A DNA stretch of 64,000 nucleotides, taken from assembly GCF_003019035.1 (NCBI RefSeq), contig NZ_CP027447.1; one strand, written 5' to 3'. The position numbers were made by a program, and so were the translations under genes. Under the pieces are notes generated by a model, which saw only the letters and a list, made by a program, of their open reading frames with translations, was not told where the DNA came from and did no database searches. Below, piece by piece: positions 4,614 to 32,895 of this stretch (within the stretch, counting starts at the first letter, position 1; each line of letters opens with the position of its first letter). The DNA is from Escherichia coli. Its GTDB lineage: Bacteria > Pseudomonadota > Gammaproteobacteria > Enterobacterales > Enterobacteriaceae.

Positions 4614-6716
4614 TTACTCAAATCGCCACGCAATATTCATGCCGACACCATAATTTCGCCCGGGAGCTGGTTCGTAATATCGACCATTTGATTCATTAAC
4701 AATCACCGATCCGACATATTCTTTATCGAATAAATTATCGACACGACCAAATAAATCCATAGTTAAATTGTGGTAATTGTATTTATACCCCGTGAATAAG
4801 CCGACGAGTGTATAAGAAGGTGCTTTGGCCGTATTTTCATCATCTGCCATAATATCGCCCATATAACGTGTTTCTGTGCCTGCATACCAGCCATCTTCCG
4901 GTACGTAACCTAAAGACACAAAGCCCATATTACGGGCGATCCCTGGCATCCGGTTACCGTTACAATCCTGTTCATTGCAAACATTGCTGCGATAGGTCGC
5001 ATCAAGCCAGGTCCAGGACGCTTTTACGCGAAAATCTCCCGCGAAACGTTGATCCCATGCCAGTTCAGCGCCTTGACGACGGGTCTTTCCGGCATTTTTG
5101 TAAGTCGTACGCCCACCGCTACTGCTATCGACAACAATTTCATCATCGGTGTCGGTCTGGAACAATGCGAGACTAAGCAGCCCATCACCAATACGCGTTT
5201 TACTGCCGATCTCAATTGTATCGTTGGTGGAGGGTTTTAACCCAAAGTTCATACCGCTTTGTCCATCAGCACGATAAGACAGCTCATTAATCGTCGGCGT
5301 TTCAAAACCTCGCCCGGCTGCCAGATAGATATTCCAGGCATCGGTCATTGCATATTTTAACGAACCGGCAGGTAGCCATTTGTGATAACTGGCATCACCG
5401 CTGTCATCGCCGTTACCCGGAGTAACGTAATGGTCGTTGGAATCAAACCACACGGAGCTGTAGCGCACGCCAGCATCCAGCGACAGTTTTTCGCTCAGCT
5501 GCCACTGCGTCTGTAAATAGGGATCGACGTTCCACATCAGATTGCGTTCGTCGCGGCGCAACTCACCTTTTTGCCCGTATTCCGGCACGCCGCTATTCAG
5601 GCGGAAGTTATTGTAGCCCTTGCGGTTTTCACTCATGTTTTCGTAGTTCAGGCCGGTAGTGAACGTGAGCGGAACGCCCAGTTCACCACGGTGTGTCCAG
5701 CGGCTGTCTATCCCCTGGTAATGGCGTTGCAGAGTAATCACGCCGCCCGCATGCGACGGGTTAAGTTGGGGGGCCATCGGGATTGACTGGTACTGGGTCG
5801 TTTCTCGCTCTCCGGCATACATCATCACACTCATATCATCCCGCGAACTCAGGCTACGTTCATAGCGCAACCCAGCCTGAGTTTGCTTGATGGTTTTTCG
5901 CGTGTCGTACTGTTCTGCACGAGGCGCTTGTTGTGGATTCGCCTTCCATTCTGCTTTGGTTAGCCCACCTGGGTCATCTGCTTTGATATCCACACTATTG
6001 AAAATCAGGCTTAATTTGCTGGCGTCATCAATGCGTACGCCCAGTTTGGCATTGGCTAAATTTTTCTGTGCGCCACTATGGTCACGATAGCCGTGGGTCG
6101 TAAAACGCGTGGTTGAGACGGTGTAATCAACATCGCCGGGCTGTGTGCCGTCTCCCGTTGCGCCCGTTGCTTTCAGCCCATAGCGCCAGCTGCCAAAACT
6201 GCCGTAGTAACTACTGGCTTCAATGGTTGGTGGCTGTTGTCCGGTCTGGGTGGTGACATTCATTACACCGCCAGACGCGTTGCCATACAGGGCAGAGAAG
6301 GGGCCACGCAGCACTTCCACATTTTGCACACTGCTTAAATCGATGTTGGATGTTTGCCCTTGCCCGTCGGGCATGGTGGCGGGAATACCGTCCACATACA
6401 GGCGAATACCGCGAATTCCGTAAGTGGAACGGGAGCCAAATCCGCGAATCGACAGCTGTAAATCTTGCGCATAGTTCTGCCGGTTTTGTACCTGCAAACC
6501 AGGCACGCCGGTCAGTGATTCGGACAAGTTAATGCGCGGTGTTGCCAGGCGCATCTCCTCGCCATCCACCACGCTTACTGCTGCAGGGGTATCCAGTTCT
6601 GAAACCACCTGCGGCGCGGCACTGACAATCATGGTCTGTTCATCAGCGGCAAAAACAACGGGGGAAAGGACAAGCAGTGCGGGCAAAACGGTCTGTCGGA
6701 CGGAAAAAATCTTCAT
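4614..6716 (-). CDS. yncD: TonB-dependent outer membrane receptor, 700 aa
   Basis: Track ORF; signal peptide, plug and beta-barrel, C-terminal aromatic residue (…AWRFE). Confidence 0.85.
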   Translation of the reverse strand: MKIFSVRQTVLPALLVLSPVVFAADEQTMIVSAAPQVVSELDTPAAVSVVDGEEMRLATPRINLSESLTGVPGLQVQNRQNYAQDLQLSIRGFGSRSTYGIRGIRLYVDGIPATMPDGQGQTSNIDLSSVQNVEVLRGPFSALYGNASGGVMNVTTQTGQQPPTIEASSYYGSFGSWRYGLKATGATGDGTQPGDVDYTVSTTRFTTHGYRDHSGAQKNLANAKLGVRIDDASKLSLIFNSVDIKADDPGGLTKAEWKANPQQAPRAEQYDTRKTIKQTQAGLRYERSLSSRDDMSVMMYAGERETTQYQSIPMAPQLNPSHAGGVITLQRHYQGIDSRWTHRGELGVPLTFTTGLNYENMSENRKGYNNFRLNSGVPEYGQKGELRRDERNLMWNVDPYLQTQWQLSEKLSLDAGVRYSSVWFDSNDHYVTPGNGDDSGDASYHKWLPAGSLKYAMTDAWNIYLAAGRGFETPTINELSYRADGQSGMNFGLKPSTNDTIEIGSKTRIGDGLLSLALFQTDTDDEIVVDSSSGGRTTYKNAGKTRRQGAELAWDQRFAGDFRVKASWTWLDATYRSNVCNEQDCNGNRMPGIARNMGFVSLGYVPEDGWYAGTETRYMGDIMADDENTAKAPSYTLVGLFTGYKYNYHNLTMDLFGRVDNLFDKEYVGSVIVNESNGRYYEPAPGRNYGVGMNIAWRFE

Positions 6717-13815: not shown

Positions 13816-15106
13816 CAGGGAAAGATCATCAGAAGTACACTTTTTGTACTAAACAATTCGCATTTTATGTTTAAAAATTGAGATATTCCTCATTACCTGA
13901 AGCTGTTTTTTATTGCTTATACATGATCAAATACTCCTTACATAATTAAGGAGAACAAAATGGAACTTAAAAAATTGATGGAGCATATTTCTATTATCCC
14001 CGATTACAGACAAGCCTGGAAAGTGGAACATAAATTATCGGACATTCTACTGTTGACTATTTGTGCCGTTATTTCTGGTGCAGAAGGCTGGGAAGATATA
14101 GAGGATTTTGGGGAAACACATCTCGATTTTTTGAAGCAATATGGTGATTTTGAAAATGGTATTCCTGTTCACGATACCATTGCCAGAGTTGTATCCTGTA
14201 TCAGTCCTGCAAAATTTCACGAGTGCTTTATTAACTGGATGCGTGACTGCCATTCTTCAGATGATAAAGGCGTCATTGCAATTGATGGAAAAACGCTCCG
14301 GCACTCTTATGACAAGAGTCGCCGCAGGGGAGCGATTCATGTCATTAGTGCGTTCTCAACAATGCACAGTCTGGTCATCGGACAGATCAAGACGGATGAG
14401 AAATCCAATGAGATTACAGCTATCCCAGAACTTCTTAACATGCTGGATATTAAAGGAAAAATCATCACAACTGATGCGATGGGTTGCCAGAAAGATATTG
14501 CAGAGAAGATACAAAAACAGGGAGGTGATTATTTATTCGCTGTAAAAGGAAATCAGGGGCGGCTTAATAAAGCCTTTGAGGAAAAATTTCCACTGAAAGA
14601 ATTAAATAATCCAGAGCATGACAGTTACGCAATGAGTGAAAAGAGTCACGGCAGAGAAGAAATCCGTCTTCACATTGTTTGCGATGTCCCTGATGAACTT
14701 ATTGATTTCACGTTTGAATGGAAAGGTCTGAAGAAATTATGCGTGGCAGTCTCCTTTCGGTCAATAATAGCAGAACAAAAGAAAGAGCCAGAAATGACGG
14801 TCAGATATTATATCAGTTCTGCTGATTTAACCGCAGAGAAGTTCGCCACAGCAATCCGAAACCACTGGCACGTGGAGAATAAGCTGCACTGGCGTCTGGA
14901 CGTGGTAATGAATGAAGACGACTGCAAAATAAGAAGAGGAAACGCCGCAGAATTATTTTCAGGGATACGGCACATCGCTATTAATATTTTAACGAATGAT
15001 AAGGTATTCAAGGCAGGGTTAAGACGTAAGATGCGAAAAGCTGCCATGGACAGAAACTATCTCGCGTCAGTCCTTGCGGGGAGCGGGCTTTCGTAATCTT
15101 TCCCTG
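13816..15106 (+). mobile_element. H-repeat (ISAs1-family) insertion sequence, copy 1, about 1291 bp
   Basis: Terminal inverted repeats cagggaaagat… (13816) and …atctttccctg (ending 15106); encloses the transposase gene. Confidence 0.75.
13960..15096 (+). CDS. H-repeat-associated (ISAs1-family) transposase, 378 aa
   Basis: Track ORF; about 99% identical to the ORFs at 18738..19874 and 26492..27628. Confidence 0.85.
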
Positions 15107-16889
15107 GCTGCTGGAGTTCACGCGCGACCGCCTGCACCGGGAGACGGTGCGCAGCTTCGGCAGCATGGCAGGCAGTAATGCCGCATACGAACTGACCAGC
15201 ACATACACCCCCGCAGGCCAGTTACAGAGCCAGCACCTGAACAGCCTGGTATATGACCGTGACTACGGGTGGAGTGACAACGGCGACCTGGTGCGCATCA
15301 GCGGCCCGCGACAGACGCGGGAATACGGCTACAGCGCCACGGGCAGGCTGGAGAGTGTGCGCACCCTCGCACCGGACCTGGACATCCGCATCCCGTATGC
15401 CACGGACCCGGCGGGCAACCGGCTGCCGGACCCGGAGCTGCACCCGGACAGTACACTCACAGTGTGGCCGGATAACCGAATCACCGAAGACGCGCACTAC
15501 CTGTACCGTTACGATGAATACGGCAGGCTGACGGAGAAGACGGACCGCATCCCGGCGGGTGTGATACGGACGGACGACGAGCGGACCCACCACTACCGCT
15601 ACGACAGCCAGCACCGCCTGGTGTTCCACACGCGGATACAGCATGGCGAGCCACTGGTCGAGAGCCGCTACCTCTACGACCCGCTGGGACGGCGAATGGC
15701 AAAACGGGTCTGGCGGCGGGAGCGTGACCTGACGGGGTGGATGTCGCTGTCGCGTAAACCGGAGGAGACATGGTACGGGTGGGACGGCGACAGGCTGACG
15801 ACGGTGCAGACTGACACCACACGTATCCAGACGGTCTACCAGCCGGGGAGCTTCACGCCGCTCATCCGTATCGAGACAGAGAACGGCGAACGGGAGAAAA
15901 TGCAACGCCGCAGCCTGGCGGAGAAGTTACAGTCGGAAGGGAGTGAGGACGGTCACGGTGTGGTGTTCCCGGCTGAGCTGGTGAGGATGCTGGACAGGCT
16001 GGAGGAAGAAATCCGGGCAGACCGCGTGAGCAGTGAAAGCCGGGCGTGGCTTGCGCAGTGCGGGCTGACGGTGGAGCAACTGGCCAGACAGGTGGAGCCG
16101 GAATACACACCGGCGCGAAAAGTTCATTTTTACCACTGCGACCACCGGGGCCTGCCGCTGGCGCTCATCAGCGAAGACGGCAATACGGTGTGGAGCGGGG
16201 AGTATGATGAATGGGGCAACCAGCTTAATGAGGAGAACCCGCATCATGTGTATCAGCCATACCGCCTGCCGGGGCAGCAGTATGATGAGGAGTCGGGGCT
16301 GTACTATAACCGCAACCGGTACTATGATCCGTTGCAGGGGAGGTATATTACCCAGGATCCGATTGGGCCGGTGGGGGGGTGGAATCCCTATAGTTATGTG
16401 CTTATTAATCCAGCCCAGTTTATTGACCCAACAGGTTTAACTCAAGAGGACAATTGGACCTATGGTGAGGTAGGTAATAGCTGTGTTACGAGTCAACGCG
16501 ATTTTACTCCCCCGCCCGGACTTGCGGATATGAAAGCCAGCATTGGCGCTGCCTGCTCAAGAAACAATGCTTCCAGAAACTGCCACCCCGTAGATGGTAG
16601 TAATGCTTCTGCACCATCGGATAAAGCCGCATGGGAAAATATTCAAAATGCGACAAATGGTAAAGATTTATCTGGTGGTGGAAATATGTTTTGTGTAGGA
16701 AATGAGGACTGTGCGGTTGTTCATAGCTGTCGTGAAATAGTTAATGCTCGACACCCGGCAGGACGAGTGCGTGAACGTGTAACTCCGTTAACAACGTCAG
16801 GAACAGCAACGCTCAATGGAACAACAGTTTACTTTTATAATGATCCCCGGAATGGCAATTGTCCTGCTCACGAATATATTCCTCAATAA
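15107..16889 (+). pseudogene. N-terminally truncated rhs: 3' core (YD repeats) plus a distinct Cys-rich C-terminal tip
   Basis: Near-identical at nucleotide level to 23994..25260 of the full-length rhs; track ORF 15147..16889; tip after the DPxGL-type core boundary (…IDPTGL) is unrelated to the full-length tip. Confidence 0.75.
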
Positions 16890-18593: not shown

Positions 18594-19884
18594 CAGGGAA
18601 AGATCATCAGAAGTACACTTTTTGTACTAAACAATTCGCATTTTATGTTTAAAAATTGAGATATTCCTCATTACCTGAAGCTGTTTTTTATTGCTTATAC
18701 ATGATCAAATACTCCTTACATAATTAAGGAGAACAAAATGGAACTTAAAAAATTGATGGAACATATTTCTATTATCCCCGATTACAGACAAGCCTGGAAA
18801 GTGGAACATAAATTATCGGATATTCTACTGTTGACTATTTGTGCCGTTATTTCGGGTGCAGAAGGCTGGGAAGATATAGAGGATTTTGGGGAAACACATC
18901 TCGATTTTTTGAAGCAATATGGTGATTTTGATAATGGTATTCCTGTTCACGATACCATTGCCAGAGTTGTATCCTGTATCAGTCCTGCAAAATTTCACGA
19001 GTGCTTTATTAACTGGATGCGTGACTGCCATTCTTCAGATGATAAAGACGTCATCGCAATTGATGGAAAAACACTCCGGCATTCTTATGACAAGAGTCGC
19101 CGCAGGGGAGCGATTCATGTCATTAGTGCGTTCTCAACAATGCACAGTCTGGTCATCGGACAGATCAGGACGGATGAGAAATCCAATGAGATCACAGCTA
19201 TCCCTGAACTTCTTAACATGCTGGATATTAAAGGAAAAATTATCACAACTGATGCAATGGGTTGCCAGAAAGATATTGCAGAGAAGATACAAAAACAGGG
19301 CGGTGATTATTTATTCGCTGTAAAAGGAAATCAGGGTCGGCTAAATAAAGCCTTTGAGGAAAAATTCCCACTGAAAGAATTAAATAATCCAGAACATGAC
19401 AGTTACGCAATGAGTGAAAAGAGTCACGGCAGAGAAGAAATCCGTCTTCACATTGTTTGCGATGTCCCTGATGAACTTATTGATTTCACGTTTGAATGGA
19501 AAGGTCTGAAGAAATTATGCGTGGCAGTCTCCTTTCGGTCAATAATAGCAGAACAAAAGAAAGAGCCAGAAATGACGGTCAGATATTATATCAGTTCTGC
19601 TGATTTAACCGCAGAGAAGTTCGCCACAGCAATCCGAAACCACTGGCACGTGGAGAATAAGCTGCACTGGCGTCTGGACGTGGTAATGAATGAAGACGAC
19701 TGCAAAATAAGAAGAGGAAACGCCGCAGAATTATTTTCAGGGATACGGCACATCGCTATTAATATTTTGACGAATGATAAGGTATTCAAGGCAGGGTTAA
19801 GACGTAAGATGCGAAAAGCTGCCATGGACAGAAACTATCTCGCGTCAGTCCTTGCGGGGAGCGGGCTTTCGTAATCTTGCCCTG
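18594..19884 (+). mobile_element. H-repeat (ISAs1-family) insertion sequence, copy 2, about 1291 bp
   Basis: IR-L cagggaaagatcatcag at 18594; IR-R …atcttgccctg ending 19884; same length as copy 1. Confidence 0.75.
18738..19874 (+). CDS. H-repeat-associated (ISAs1-family) transposase, 378 aa
   Basis: Track ORF; near-identical to copies 1 and 3. Confidence 0.85.
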
Positions 19885-25815: not shown

Positions 25816-26265
25816 ATGATGAAATATTTGATGGTTTTATTGTCTCTATTTTCTGCTTCGGTATTGGGGATGGGGCGAGTGAATGAATTGTGTGGAATAG
25901 ATAGTGTGAAAACGATAGAAATAATTAATCTTCCAGCATATGTTACCACCTTAACCCCGCTTAGCAAGGAAGGTCTCAAGAGAATATACAAACATAAAGT
26001 GGTGGTGAATGGAGTTAGCGATTTTTATGCTGGTGAGATAATTGATTTATTGCAAATGAAGTATTTCAGGAAGGAGGAGAATAACGATATAAGATGGGGG
26101 GTTGACATTGTTTCGAATAAAAATAATAAATGTGAAATTTATTTTGATGGTTTTGGTGAATGTGGAAGTGTGAATGGCATTAACGTATGTTTTGAAAAAA
26201 ATGAAATGATAGATTGGATTAAAAAAGAAATCCCTTTTCTGTCGCAAGAAATAGGTGGTCTTTAA
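25816..26265 (+). CDS. Putative cognate immunity protein with signal peptide, 149 aa
   Basis: Track ORF 13 nt after the rhs stop; AT-rich; N-terminus MMKYLMVLLSLFSASVLG. Confidence 0.55.
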   Translation: MMKYLMVLLSLFSASVLGMGRVNELCGIDSVKTIEIINLPAYVTTLTPLSKEGLKRIYKHKVVVNGVSDFYAGEIIDLLQMKYFRKEENNDIRWGVDIVSNKNNKCEIYFDGFGECGSVNGINVCFEKNEMIDWIKKEIPFLSQEIGGL

Positions 26266-26322: not shown

Positions 26323-27638
26323 CAGGGAAAGATCACGTAACGCTGCTCAGGGAAAGATCACGTAACGCTGCTTTTTTGTACTAAACAATCCGCATTTTAT
26401 GTTTAAAAATTGAGATATTCCTCATTACCTAAAGCTGTTTTTTATTGCTTATACATGATCAAATACTCCTTACATAATTAAGGAGAACAAAATGGAACTT
26501 AAAAAATTGATGGAACATATTTCTATTATCCCCGATTACAGACAAGCCTGGAAAGTGGAACATAAATTATCGGATATTCTACTGTTGACTATTTGTGCCG
26601 TTATTTCGGGTGCAGAAGGCTGGGAAGATATAGAGGATTTTGGGGAAACACATCTCGATTTTTTGAAGCAATATGGTGATTTTGATAATGGTATTCCTGT
26701 TCACGATACCATTGCCAGAGTTGTATCCTGTATCAGTCCTGCAAAATTTCACGAGTGCTTTATTAACTGGATGCGTGACTGCCATTCTTCAGATGATAAA
26801 GACGTCATCGCAATTGATGGAAAAACACTCCGGCATTCTTATGACAAGAGTCGCCGCAGGGGAGCGATTCATGTCATTAGTGCGTTCTCAACAATGCACA
26901 GTCTGGTCATCGGACAGATCAGGACGGATGAGAAATCCAATGAGATCACAGCTATCCCTGAACTTCTTAACATGCTGGATATTAAAGGAAAAATTATCAC
27001 AACTGATGCAATGGGTTGCCAGAAAGATATTGCAGAGAAGATACAAAAACAGGGCGGTGATTATTTATTCGCTGTAAAAGGAAACCAGGGGCGGCTAAAT
27101 AAAGCCTTCGAGGAAAAATTTCCGCTGAAAGAATTAAATAATCCAGAGCATGACAGTTACGCAATGAGTGAAAAGAGTCACGGCAGAGAAGAAATCCGTC
27201 TTCACATTTTTTGCGATGTCCCTGATGAACTTATTGATTTCACGTTTGAATGGAAAGGTCTGAAGAAATTATGCGTGGCAGTCTCCTTTCGGTCAATAAT
27301 AGCAGAACAAAAGAAAGAGCCAGAAATGACGGTCAGATATTATATCAGTTCTGCTGATTTAACCGCAGAGAAGTTCGCCACAGCAATCCGAAACCACTGG
27401 CACGTGGAGAATAAGCTGCACTGGCGTCTGGACGTGGTAATGAATGAAGACGACTGCAAAATAAGAAGAGGAAATGCAGCAGAATTATTTTCAGGGATAC
27501 GGCACATCGCTATTAATATTTTGACGAATGATAAGGTATTCAAGGCAGGGTTAAGACGTAAGATGCGAAAAGCAGCCATGGACAGAAACTATCTGGCGTC
27601 AGTCCTTGCGGGGAGCGGGCTTTCGTAATCTTTCCCTG
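26323..27638 (+). mobile_element. H-repeat (ISAs1-family) insertion sequence, copy 3, with a 25-bp tandem duplication at its left end
   Basis: cagggaaagatcacgtaacgctgct occurs twice in tandem (26323..26372); IR-R …atctttccctg ends at 27638. Confidence 0.7.
26492..27628 (+). CDS. H-repeat-associated (ISAs1-family) transposase, 378 aa
   Basis: Track ORF; near-identical to copies 1 and 2. Confidence 0.85.
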
Positions 27639-27744
27639 TTTGTTTATATAAATGCCAAGATATTCTTTCTCAAAATATTGACTTCAGATTAACCGTGTTC
27701 CACGCAAACAATTTTCAAACATTCATCAATAGATAAGGAATTCC

Positions 27745-28212
27745 ATGTTTATACGACCAGTCAAACCTTCAGATGTTGAACCATTACTGGATATGCTGCT
27801 TGCCAGTGGACAATTTGATCAAGATGGCCTTCATCATGTACAAAAAACACTAACACATTATTTCTCAGGTCAATCTGCCGATTTATGGTTTAGTGCAGAA
27901 CACTTAGGACTGGCAGGGATTGCCTATTGCGCTCCTGAAGTGATGACAAATGATGTCTGGAATTTATTAATGCTCTGGATCAGTCCTTCCCATCAGCGCC
28001 AGGGAGTGGGACATCTGCTGATTAACGAAATAGAAAAAGAGCTCACAATTAAACAGGCAAGACTACTTTTAGTAGAGACCTCCAGCCATATCGATTTTAG
28101 TGCCGCCCGCGCATTTTATACAAAACAGGGCTTTATCAATGAAGCTATAATACGCAATTACTATGATGTTGGTGAGGATAAATTAATCTTCACTAAGAAT
28201 ATACAATCGTGA
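27745..28212 (+). CDS. GNAT-family N-acetyltransferase, 155 aa
   Basis: Track ORF; acetyl-CoA-binding motif (QRQGVGHLL). Confidence 0.7.
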   Translation: MFIRPVKPSDVEPLLDMLLASGQFDQDGLHHVQKTLTHYFSGQSADLWFSAEHLGLAGIAYCAPEVMTNDVWNLLMLWISPSHQRQGVGHLLINEIEKELTIKQARLLLVETSSHIDFSAARAFYTKQGFINEAIIRNYYDVGEDKLIFTKNIQS

Positions 28213-28277
28213 AATAAAATGTGCTTTTAACTCATATGGAAACATTGCTTAAAAAACCGGTCGCTGCATATGATTCT

Positions 28278-28847
28278 TTAGCCCGCGGTGACTCGCTTCC
28301 CGCTGGTAACAAACGTGCCAGCGCCTAAATGATGCAACGTATTGAGCTTATCATCATCAAACTGCCAGCGGCCTTCGACAAATACCCGTGCGTCTGCCGC
28401 TGCTGATACCACTTCGCCAAACAGCGTGTCGTATTTCTCTTGCGCGGAAGTCGCTGGTAGCAATCGGCACTCCATCCACGCCAGACATTTCTCTTCAACA
28501 AGTGGCAAACCAAGCACCGGACCTTCCACCACCGGAATGCCATAGCAATTAAATTTATCCTCTTCACGCCCAGATACACTTCCCACTGCCCACGTCCAGT
28601 TAGTCGCTGCAACGCCTGGGATAACGATGCCAAATTTACCGTTACGCTCAATCAACTCCCTGGTCCATGTCGACTTATCTACCACAATCGCCACGCGTGG
28701 CGGTTCAAACTCTACGGGCATAGACCAGGCTGCTGCCATCACATTACGTCGCTGTGATTTTTCATCAAAAGTTGTTATCAAAACTGTGGGGCCGTGGTTT
28801 AACAGACGGCTGGCATGGTGTAATTCGACGGGAATGAATTGGCTCAC
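28278..28847 (-). CDS. yddH: Flavin reductase-like domain protein, 189 aa
   Basis: Track ORF; synteny with nhoA. Confidence 0.8.
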   Translation of the reverse strand: MSQFIPVELHHASRLLNHGPTVLITTFDEKSQRRNVMAAAWSMPVEFEPPRVAIVVDKSTWTRELIERNGKFGIVIPGVAATNWTWAVGSVSGREEDKFNCYGIPVVEGPVLGLPLVEEKCLAWMECRLLPATSAQEKYDTLFGEVVSAAADARVFVEGRWQFDDDKLNTLHHLGAGTFVTSGKRVTAG

Positions 28848-30014: not shown

Positions 30015-31240
<1,226 letters not shown>

Positions 31241-31241
31241 T

Positions 31242-32135
31242 TCAGAGTTCAATTGCCCATTCGGCATGAAACAAAATCACCGCCGTGCCAGAAATGGTGA
31301 CTTTCTCCGGTTGGTTATCGCGAATTGTCACCGTCACTTCAATTACGCCGTCACGCCCTAATGCGCGCCCCTGATGGCCTTTAACATGCAACACGTTGCC
31401 ATCGTGGGGCAATACGTTGTGATGTACCAACCATGCACCCATCGGGCCATTGGCATTGCCAGTCACCGGATCTTCCACAATACCAATCGCAGGCGAGAAC
31501 ATGCGACCATCGGTTTCGTTTTTGCCTGGGCGGATCTGGAACGGGAAGAAACCATTGCAGCCAATCTGTTTGCTGATTGTGGTCAGCGCAGCAAGGTCAG
31601 GCGAAAGGGCGTCGATATCCACTTCCGGCTTCAGTGGAATCATCACTTTTGAGTGTCCTGTGGTAGCCACCTGGATTGGCAAGCCTTGCAAAATATCGTC
31701 TTCAGTGAGATGAAGCGCGTTGATAATCGCTGCACGTGTTTCACCTTTCAGCGGTGGCTCAAAGCCTGGAGTACCTTGTTCCAGCGAAATACGATAATCA
31801 TCATTTTGCTTTTCGATAGTCACACGATGTTTTCCTGCCAGCGACGTTTGCCAGACGGTGCAATTTCCTAAACCTAACACCTTTGCACGTACATAGTGCG
31901 CAGCTACTGTCGCGTGACCACAAATCGGAACTTCAACCGTTGGCGTAAAGTAGCGGATGCGCACATCGCTGTCGTCGCTGTGCAGCAGAAAAGCAGTTTC
32001 CGAATGACCTAACTCGCGGGCGATAAGCTGCATTTGCGCTTCGCTAAGATTATCGGCGGGGAAAACAACACCGGCAGAATTGCCGCGAAACGGTTGAGAG
32101 GTAAAAGCATCGACGTGGTAAACCTGCGGTTTCAT
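31242..32135 (-). CDS. yddE: PhzF-family isomerase-like protein, 297 aa
   Basis: Track ORF; synteny. Confidence 0.8.
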   Translation of the reverse strand: MKPQVYHVDAFTSQPFRGNSAGVVFPADNLSEAQMQLIARELGHSETAFLLHSDDSDVRIRYFTPTVEVPICGHATVAAHYVRAKVLGLGNCTVWQTSLAGKHRVTIEKQNDDYRISLEQGTPGFEPPLKGETRAAIINALHLTEDDILQGLPIQVATTGHSKVMIPLKPEVDIDALSPDLAALTTISKQIGCNGFFPFQIRPGKNETDGRMFSPAIGIVEDPVTGNANGPMGAWLVHHNVLPHDGNVLHVKGHQGRALGRDGVIEVTVTIRDNQPEKVTISGTAVILFHAEWAIEL

Positions 32136-32214
32136 TAATGTTCTCCTGTGGCTGGAGAACTATCATAGCCTGCAAGTGGCCGGAGAGCGAAGAGCTATCC
32201 GGCCCGCGAGAGAA

Positions 32215-32895
32215 TTAACGCCGCGAACGCACAATCTGATACCGACGAGTAAAGTACTCAAACGGCGCGCTCCAGACATGCACCAGTCGGGTGAACGGGA
32301 AGAGCAGAAAGATGGTCATTCCAAGCACCAGATGAACGCGGAATATAAAGGCGACACCATCAAGATGCGTAGATGCACCGCCCTGGAAAGTGACAATGCT
32401 TTGCGCCCAGCCCACCAGCTTCATCATTTCACTGCCGTCCGGATGTTGTGCTGAAAAAGGAATGGTGGTTAACCCAAGAATGCACTGAATTAACAAAATG
32501 GCGAGGATCAGGATATCCGCACCAGAAGACGTCGCCCTGATACGCGGATTTGTTAAACGACGCACCAGTAGCCCCGCACCGCCAATCAGCGTCAATACCC
32601 CGCATATTCCGCCGAGGATCATCGCCATCTGCTGTTTTACCGCCACCGGCAGAAACCACGCGTACATCCAGTGCGGTGTTAACATGCCGAACAGGTGCCC
32701 GAAGAAAATCCCCAAAATGCCGATATGGAACAGATTCGACCATATCACCATCCCACGTTTATCGAGCATCTGGCTCGAGGAGGCGCGCCAGGTGTACTGC
32801 CCGTAGTCATAGCGCAGCCAGCTGCCAAGGAAAAACACCGTCGCACAAATGTACGGGTAGATATCGTAAAAAAAGACGTTCAGATACTGAATCAT
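32215..32895 (-). CDS. narV: Nitrate reductase Z gamma subunit (cytochrome b), 226 aa
   Basis: Track ORF; NarI-family membrane protein; operon order narZYWV. Confidence 0.85.

Follow-up and report, generated by a model that had tools for sequence, protein, structure and literature searches.

A GNAT acetyltransferase gene in the pptA slot beside yddH in an Escherichia coli strain

In Escherichia coli K-12, the chromosomal slot that ends at yddH is held by pptA (b1461), whose product is a 77-residue protein of the 4-oxalocrotonate tautomerase family. In the 64,000-nucleotide stretch of E. coli DNA analysed here (contig NZ_CP027447.1; hereafter the window), the same slot, likewise in convergent orientation with yddH, is held by the gene of a 155-residue GNAT family N-acetyltransferase, which is unrelated to PptA in fold and chemistry. 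Among proteins of solved structure, this acetyltransferase stands closest to Dde_3044 of Desulfovibrio desulfuricans (PDB 2r7h), which is matched over the full length (E 8.8e-15 with the single sequence, 2.5e-25 with a profile of 45 homologues) but shares only 25% identity and was deposited by structural genomics as a 'putative acetyltransferase of the GNAT family'. RimI, the ribosomal protein S18-alanine N-alpha-acetyltransferase, is alike in size and in its GNAT core, and provides both the best curated-family match (TIGR01575) and the second-best PDB sequence match (5isv/2cnm, E 2e-5). The scores, however, stay far below the RimI cut-offs (41.3 bits against 86.4 for TIGR01575 and 28.7 against 173 for NF007025), and only residues 48-146 are matched. 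Homologues of the protein are often named 'RimI-like' in their sources; E. coli has its own rimI at another locus, and no evidence tied the protein to S18, as a RimI role would have it.

The GNAT gene and its product

The initial annotation of the window had placed a 155-residue GNAT acetyltransferase beside the third H-repeat copy, and both the open reading frame (ORF) and its Pfam matches bear this out. The protein scores 42.3 bits against Acetyltransf_7 (PF13508; cut-off 27), 35.6 against Acetyltransf_1 (PF00583; cut-off 20.7) and 29.5 against Acetyltransf_10 (PF13673; cut-off 23.6), and its homologues number in the hundreds, with E values down to 3e-83. The Shine-Dalgarno-like AAGGA ahead of its start codon (Table 1) is kept, in alignment, in the alleles of strains LHM10-1 and CFT073. 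The ribosome-binding site, the Pfam matches and the homologues together establish the reading frame as a real gene and not a chance ORF. It is already known, in that RefSeq annotates it as a generic GNAT family N-acetyltransferase: E. coli SCU-301 carries the segment at the same locus with DNA 100% identical to that of the window, and the NCBI annotation pipeline (PGAP) lists its product as WP_123000022.1, GNAT family N-acetyltransferase.

Comparison with the LHM10-1 allele (WP_000470660.1), whose protein is 98% identical to that of the window, gives 8 synonymous and 3 non-synonymous differences; the resulting ratio of non-synonymous to synonymous divergence (dN/dS), about 0.10, shows purifying selection on the gene. 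The window protein also keeps 22 of the 22 residues that are invariant across 45 homologues, and the low dN/dS and this complete retention, taken together, indicate that the window copy is probably functional. At position 121, the LHM10-1 protein (positions 5108-5575 of locus L004) has glycine, whereas alanine stands there in each of the 45 aligned family members, the window allele among them; judging from this alignment, the LHM10-1 allele is possibly mildly impaired by Gly121.

The AlphaFold model of the protein is of high confidence (predicted local distance difference test, pLDDT, 95.8; predicted template-modelling score, pTM, 0.90), and a Foldseek search with it retrieved 701 GNAT chains of the PDB at E ≤ 0.001. 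The top match was again 2r7h, with a template-modelling (TM) score of 0.90 and a root-mean-square deviation of 1.8 Å over 155 columns, and further matches with TM scores of 0.70-0.84 comprised AAC(6')-Ii, RimI, bialaphos/phosphinothricin acetyltransferases, Ard1 and the tabtoxin resistance protein. The acetyl-CoA motif A (Q/R-x-x-G-x-G/A) is present as Q84-R-Q-G87-V-G89; across the 45 homologues, G89 is invariant and G87 is conserved in at least 90%. Given the Pfam score, motif A and the predicted fold, the protein can be assigned with confidence to the GNAT superfamily. The window protein likewise has Y125, a residue invariant in the 45 homologues. A tyrosine at this position is the general acid in many GNATs, and by analogy Y125 would play that role here.

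Table 1. Features of the GNAT locus in the window (positions are those of the window)
Feature	Position	Strand	Basis
ISAs1-family H-repeat copy 3, left boundary of the replaced segment	26348..27638	+	Pfam DDE_Tnp_1_assoc, DDE_Tnp_1
Low-GC segment absent from K-12: leader, GNAT gene and 20-bp trailer	27639..28232		blastn breakpoints
Shine-Dalgarno-like AAGGA	27735..27739	+	5 nt before ATG, read from the sequence
GNAT family N-acetyltransferase coding sequence, intact, 155 residues	27745..28212	+	ATG-initiated ORF, Pfam, AlphaFold, Foldseek
Diverged relic of the pptA 3' end, abutting the yddH stop	28233..28277		local and multiple alignment
yddH, flavin reductase-like, right boundary	28278..28847	-	Pfam Flavin_Reduct

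Replacement of pptA at the edge of the Rhs island

In MG1655, RefSeq annotation gives the order ydcC (b1460), pptA (b1461), yddH (b1462), nhoA and yddE. The initial annotation had expected pptA between ydcC and yddH and allowed that it might have the K-12 order wrong; the order is as it expected, and the doubt proves misplaced. By blastn, homology with K-12 ends at position 27638, 10 bp past the stop codon of the H-repeat transposase, and restarts at position 28278, at the stop codon of yddH, and 639 bp of the window thus stand in place of a 319-bp K-12 segment that holds pptA. The same comparison finds no GNAT sequence at this place in K-12, and pptA is absent from all 64 kb of the window in searches by tblastn with K-12 PptA and by blastn (word size 7) with the K-12 pptA segment, as expected from the remark of the initial annotation that no tautomerase ORF is present. 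The guanine-cytosine (GC) content of positions 27639-28277 is 0.376, against 0.52 in yddH and 0.51 in nhoA, and this low value is consistent with a foreign origin of the replacing DNA. To the left, the H-repeat is 96.7% identical to the ydcC region of K-12 and bears a ydcC-like transposase coding sequence at 26492-27628; it is the last of the three copies in the window (13816-15107, 18594-19884 and 26348-27638). In LHM10-1, which is without the H-repeat, the GNAT segment begins at the identical base. To the right, yddH is convergent with the GNAT gene, and nhoA, an IS621 insertion and yddE lie beyond it.

The direction of the exchange can be read from other species. We surveyed one genome per species for loci with yddH, by a YddH scan that gave 80 loci, and searched these by tblastn for pptA and GNAT. 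A convergent pptA lies no more than 700 bp from the yddH end in 20 of the 80 loci; in another 20 it is further out, inside the 3-kb flank. E. whittamii, Escherichia sp. E1V33, E. albertii and many Citrobacter, Kluyvera, Kosakonia and Pluralibacter are among the carriers of such a pptA. In none of the 80 species representatives was the GNAT gene beside yddH. In the window itself, 65 bp separate the GNAT stop codon from that of yddH, and the final ~45 bp of this spacer are colinear with pptA 3' ends and placed alike with respect to yddH, aligning with those of K-12, E. whittamii, Escherichia sp. E1V33 and E. albertii at roughly 70-75% identity. The best pairs reach z values of 6-10 over shuffled sequences, with 0 of 300 shuffles equalling the observed score. 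Since pptA is found at the slot in other species, the GNAT gene in 0 of 80, and a relic of pptA in the window, pptA is the ancestral occupant and the GNAT gene a derived replacement; as read from these alignments, the GNAT-bearing DNA replaced all of pptA but its 3' stub.

The 3' end of pptA also varies within Escherichia. In K-12 (L001 8270-8286) it carries a 1-bp deletion relative to the other Escherichia (L017, L018 and L020), with AGCATGAATGCTTAA versus AGCATGTAATGC. In the multiple alignment this deletion lengthens PptA from 75 to 77 residues, and the pptA stop overlaps that of yddH.

Within E. coli, the slot is polymorphic. Among 5,426 complete genomes, the pptA segment was found in 4,653 (about 86%; at a coverage of at least 80% in 4,078), and the GNAT segment, in full or in part, in 660 (about 12%; at a coverage of at least 80% in 431). 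Among the full-length GNAT matches listed, only the first 16 records have an annotated GNAT gene, with DNA identities of 97.4-100%, and the other full-length copies listed, as in CFT073, Nissle 1917, ATCC 25922 and APEC O18, strains of phylogroup B2, are about 96% identical to the window. In the CFT073 copy, codon 72 has changed from TGG to TGA (W72 to stop), and a 1-bp deletion further on shifts the frame. In the Ecol_316 type only the 3' ~227 bp of the GNAT segment are left, and in the AVS0662 type pptA is cut to a 59-bp stub and an H-repeat lies directly against yddH. The locus has at least four states, of which the intact GNAT gene of the window is the rarest. The proposal of the initial annotation, that the strain differs in gene content at the margin of the Rhs island, is thus supported in the form of a clean segment replacement that is polymorphic in E. 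coli, with the refinement that the gene is not private to this strain: it belongs to an old minority haplotype, which in other lineages has for the most part become a pseudogene. A notable carriage on plasmids was considered and rejected, as only 8 plasmid records match the gene. The E. coli ones among them hold pseudogene copies of the B2 type and are suspected to be chromosomal fragments in reality; the remaining matches, in Nostoc, Deinococcus and Agrobacterium, are about 32-38% identical.

A search of the literature on the pptA/yddH slot, on the RefSeq accessions and on 2R7H returned no paper on the pptA/GNAT polymorphism. The case is one of ordinary strain-to-strain variation of the accessory genome where a variable Rhs island ends. 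What it means in practice is that the slot downstream of yddH is the site of a minor gene-content polymorphism, and that pptA should not be expected in every strain. Its value is modest and lies in the fact that the event could be reconstructed from the pptA relic, the foreign base composition and the presence of pptA in outgroup species.

Origin and candidate roles of the GNAT gene

We consider it very likely that the gene encodes a stand-alone accessory GNAT enzyme, brought in on foreign DNA that replaced pptA, and that this GNAT gene is intact here and decayed in most carriers. The sequence of events would begin with about 0.6 kb of low-GC foreign DNA carrying the GNAT gene in beside yddH, at the distal border of the variable island of Rhs and type VI secretion system (T6SS) genes, where it would have replaced the ancestral pptA save for its last ~45 bp. 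The haplotype may then have passed from one E. coli lineage to another, with homologous recombination in its conserved flanks (the H-repeat or the island on the left, yddH on the right) as the probable route. The gene has decayed in most carriers and is intact in the source strain of the window. The protein is most likely an enzyme that moves an acetyl group from acetyl-CoA onto an amine, which could belong to a small molecule or to a protein N-terminus.

Some observations weigh against this reading. A consensus scan around the gene found no sigma-70 promoter and no intrinsic terminator, and its expression might rely on transcription that runs on from the H-repeat transposase gene. As the protein of 2r7h is itself uncharacterised, the best structural match names the fold and no function, and in the NCBIfam search the protein reached no curated equivalog cut-off. 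Moreover, the widespread pseudogenisation elsewhere suggests that the gene is dispensable and may bring little benefit.

Homologues outside E. coli occur sporadically in Salmonella, Enterobacillus, Enterobacter, Phytobacter, Kluyvera, Citrobacter, Serratia and Aeromonas, at 69-77% identity, and in environmental bacteria at about 45-50%. We inspected seven contexts (Salmonella, Phytobacter, Uliginosibacterium and four metagenomic or genomic contigs) and found no neighbour shared among them; each time the gene is monocistronic, with different genes around it. Conserved neighbours as a clue to the substrate were therefore rejected, none being common to the seven contexts. The Salmonella copy lies in an island with integrase, DUF3987 and AlpA genes, behind four small unannotated ORFs, and the Phytobacter copy adjoins an IS3-type transposase gene and a MarR/MFS pair; in the other contexts the gene lies among unrelated housekeeping genes. 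In Salmonella enterica GCA_018535225.1 (L009 2739-4727), the four ORFs between the integrase gene and the GNAT homologue encode 170, 166, 149 and 138 residues, have no Pfam match and are part of a DUF3987/AlpA/CbtA-CbeA island. We also compared the small ORFs that precede the GNAT gene in E. coli, in Salmonella and in the window, and rejected homology between them: there is none across species, and the ORFs belong to no Pfam family.

It is conceivable, if unlikely, that the gene is resistance or immunity cargo whose product would acetylate and so inactivate an incoming toxic small molecule or an effector, in the manner of the phosphinothricin, tabtoxin and aminoglycoside acetyltransferases, placed at the distal end of orphan immunity-like arrays in Rhs/T6SS islands. 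The support is circumstantial and comes from the array-end position and from structural neighbours that are resistance enzymes: AAC(6')-Ii, BAR/PAT and the tabtoxin resistance protein are among the Foldseek neighbours (TM scores of 0.80-0.84), the gene or its remnant trails small, AT-rich ORFs without Pfam match in LHM10-1, in Ecol_316 and in the Salmonella integrase island, and the window copy lies at the end of an Rhs island. However, the structural likeness is that of the generic GNAT fold, and the NCBIfam scores fall far short of the resistance families (21 against 265 bits for AAC(6')-Ia, 17.7 against 300 for AAC(3)-XI and 15.7 against 300 for PPT_acetyltrans). The lack of homology between the upstream ORFs of E. 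coli and Salmonella and the unrelated chromosomal contexts of distant homologues also count against it, and frequent pseudogenisation speaks against strong selection. Somewhat less likely again is the extension of this idea to a mobile detoxification or immunity gene of Rhs/T6SS and integrase islands that would acetylate, and thereby neutralise, the toxin or antimetabolite of a competitor, and whose coexistence with pptA would be a long-maintained polymorphism and not neutral decay, a proposal that draws on the four-fold elevated synonymous divergence of yddH beside the cassette.

The position of the gene could also be taken to make its product a partner of yddH and nhoA in xenobiotic metabolism, standing in for PptA in the same pathway, as it holds the slot of pptA beside yddH and the product of the nearby nhoA is also an acetyltransferase, with arylamine substrates. 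We regard this as very improbable. The adjacency to yddH is found in E. coli only (0 of the 80 species representatives), no flavin reductase or nhoA gene lies next to the homologues elsewhere, and the GNAT protein has neither the fold nor the chemistry of a 4-oxalocrotonate tautomerase. The foreign base composition of the segment argues in the same direction, and in most carriers the GNAT gene is a pseudogene, whereas yddH and nhoA are intact.

The closest structural neighbours of TacT are 2R7H, RimI and Ard1 (PMC4942678), and because this list includes the matches found here, we tested whether the protein might be an orphan toxin of a type II toxin-antitoxin module of the TacT/AtaT/KacT type, which would acetylate aminoacyl-tRNA and block translation. 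Toxins of this group, ItaT among them, have an RHH/DUF1778 antitoxin gene beside them, mostly upstream. There is no antitoxin ORF in the 106-bp leader and no DUF1778/RHH neighbour in the seven other contexts; the family profile reaches KacT at only 15.6 bits (E 0.11), in a match confined to the generic acetyl-CoA core, and neither TacT nor AtaT appears in the 60 best of 68 profile matches. Taking the isoelectric point (pI) as a proxy for a basic, tRNA-binding surface, the protein is acidic (pI 5.55; family range 4.51-6.71, median 5.17), and tRNA-binding toxins of the TacT/AtaT/KacT type are unlike this acidic family. An unopposed toxin, moreover, would not give a dN/dS of about 0.1. With the antitoxin missing, the similarity to KacT weak and the pI acidic, the toxin was rejected as scarcely credible. 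PADLOC-DB 2.0 returned 0 defence families at E ≤ 0.1, which counts against a toxin as well, and a role in anti-phage defence was rejected on this result.

Divergence of yddH and other features of the window

Beside the replaced segment, yddH itself differs from K-12 to an unusual degree. The two genes share 89.5% nucleotide identity and 179 of 189 residues, with proportions of synonymous and non-synonymous differences (pS and pN) of 0.356 and 0.029, against pS values of 0.090 for nhoA and 0.130 for yddE. Counted from the yddH stop codon through the gene, three 200-bp blocks in a row are 93.5%, 89.5% and 83.5% identical to K-12, and identity then rises abruptly to 97-98% in nhoA. In yddH, E. 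coli strains lie as far from one another as they do from E. whittamii. This pattern suggests that yddH, next to the variable island, may be a mosaic of alleles that are ancient or were imported, and its divergence could interest work on recombination and on diversity gradients around such islands. A second divergent patch, at 32108-32707, covers the 5' end of yddE and the 3' end of a narV homologue, with 77-87% identity to K-12 between flanks of 97-98%.

Between nhoA and yddE, the window carries a transposase gene of IS621, of the IS110 family (30035-31015, minus strand), which is not in K-12 and is identical in SCU-301. On the other side of the locus, a 149-residue ORF (25816-26265, plus strand) with a signal-peptide-like N-terminus matches no Pfam, NCBIfam or PADLOC family; it lies directly behind the Rhs C-terminal tip, a position that fits an Rhs immunity protein.
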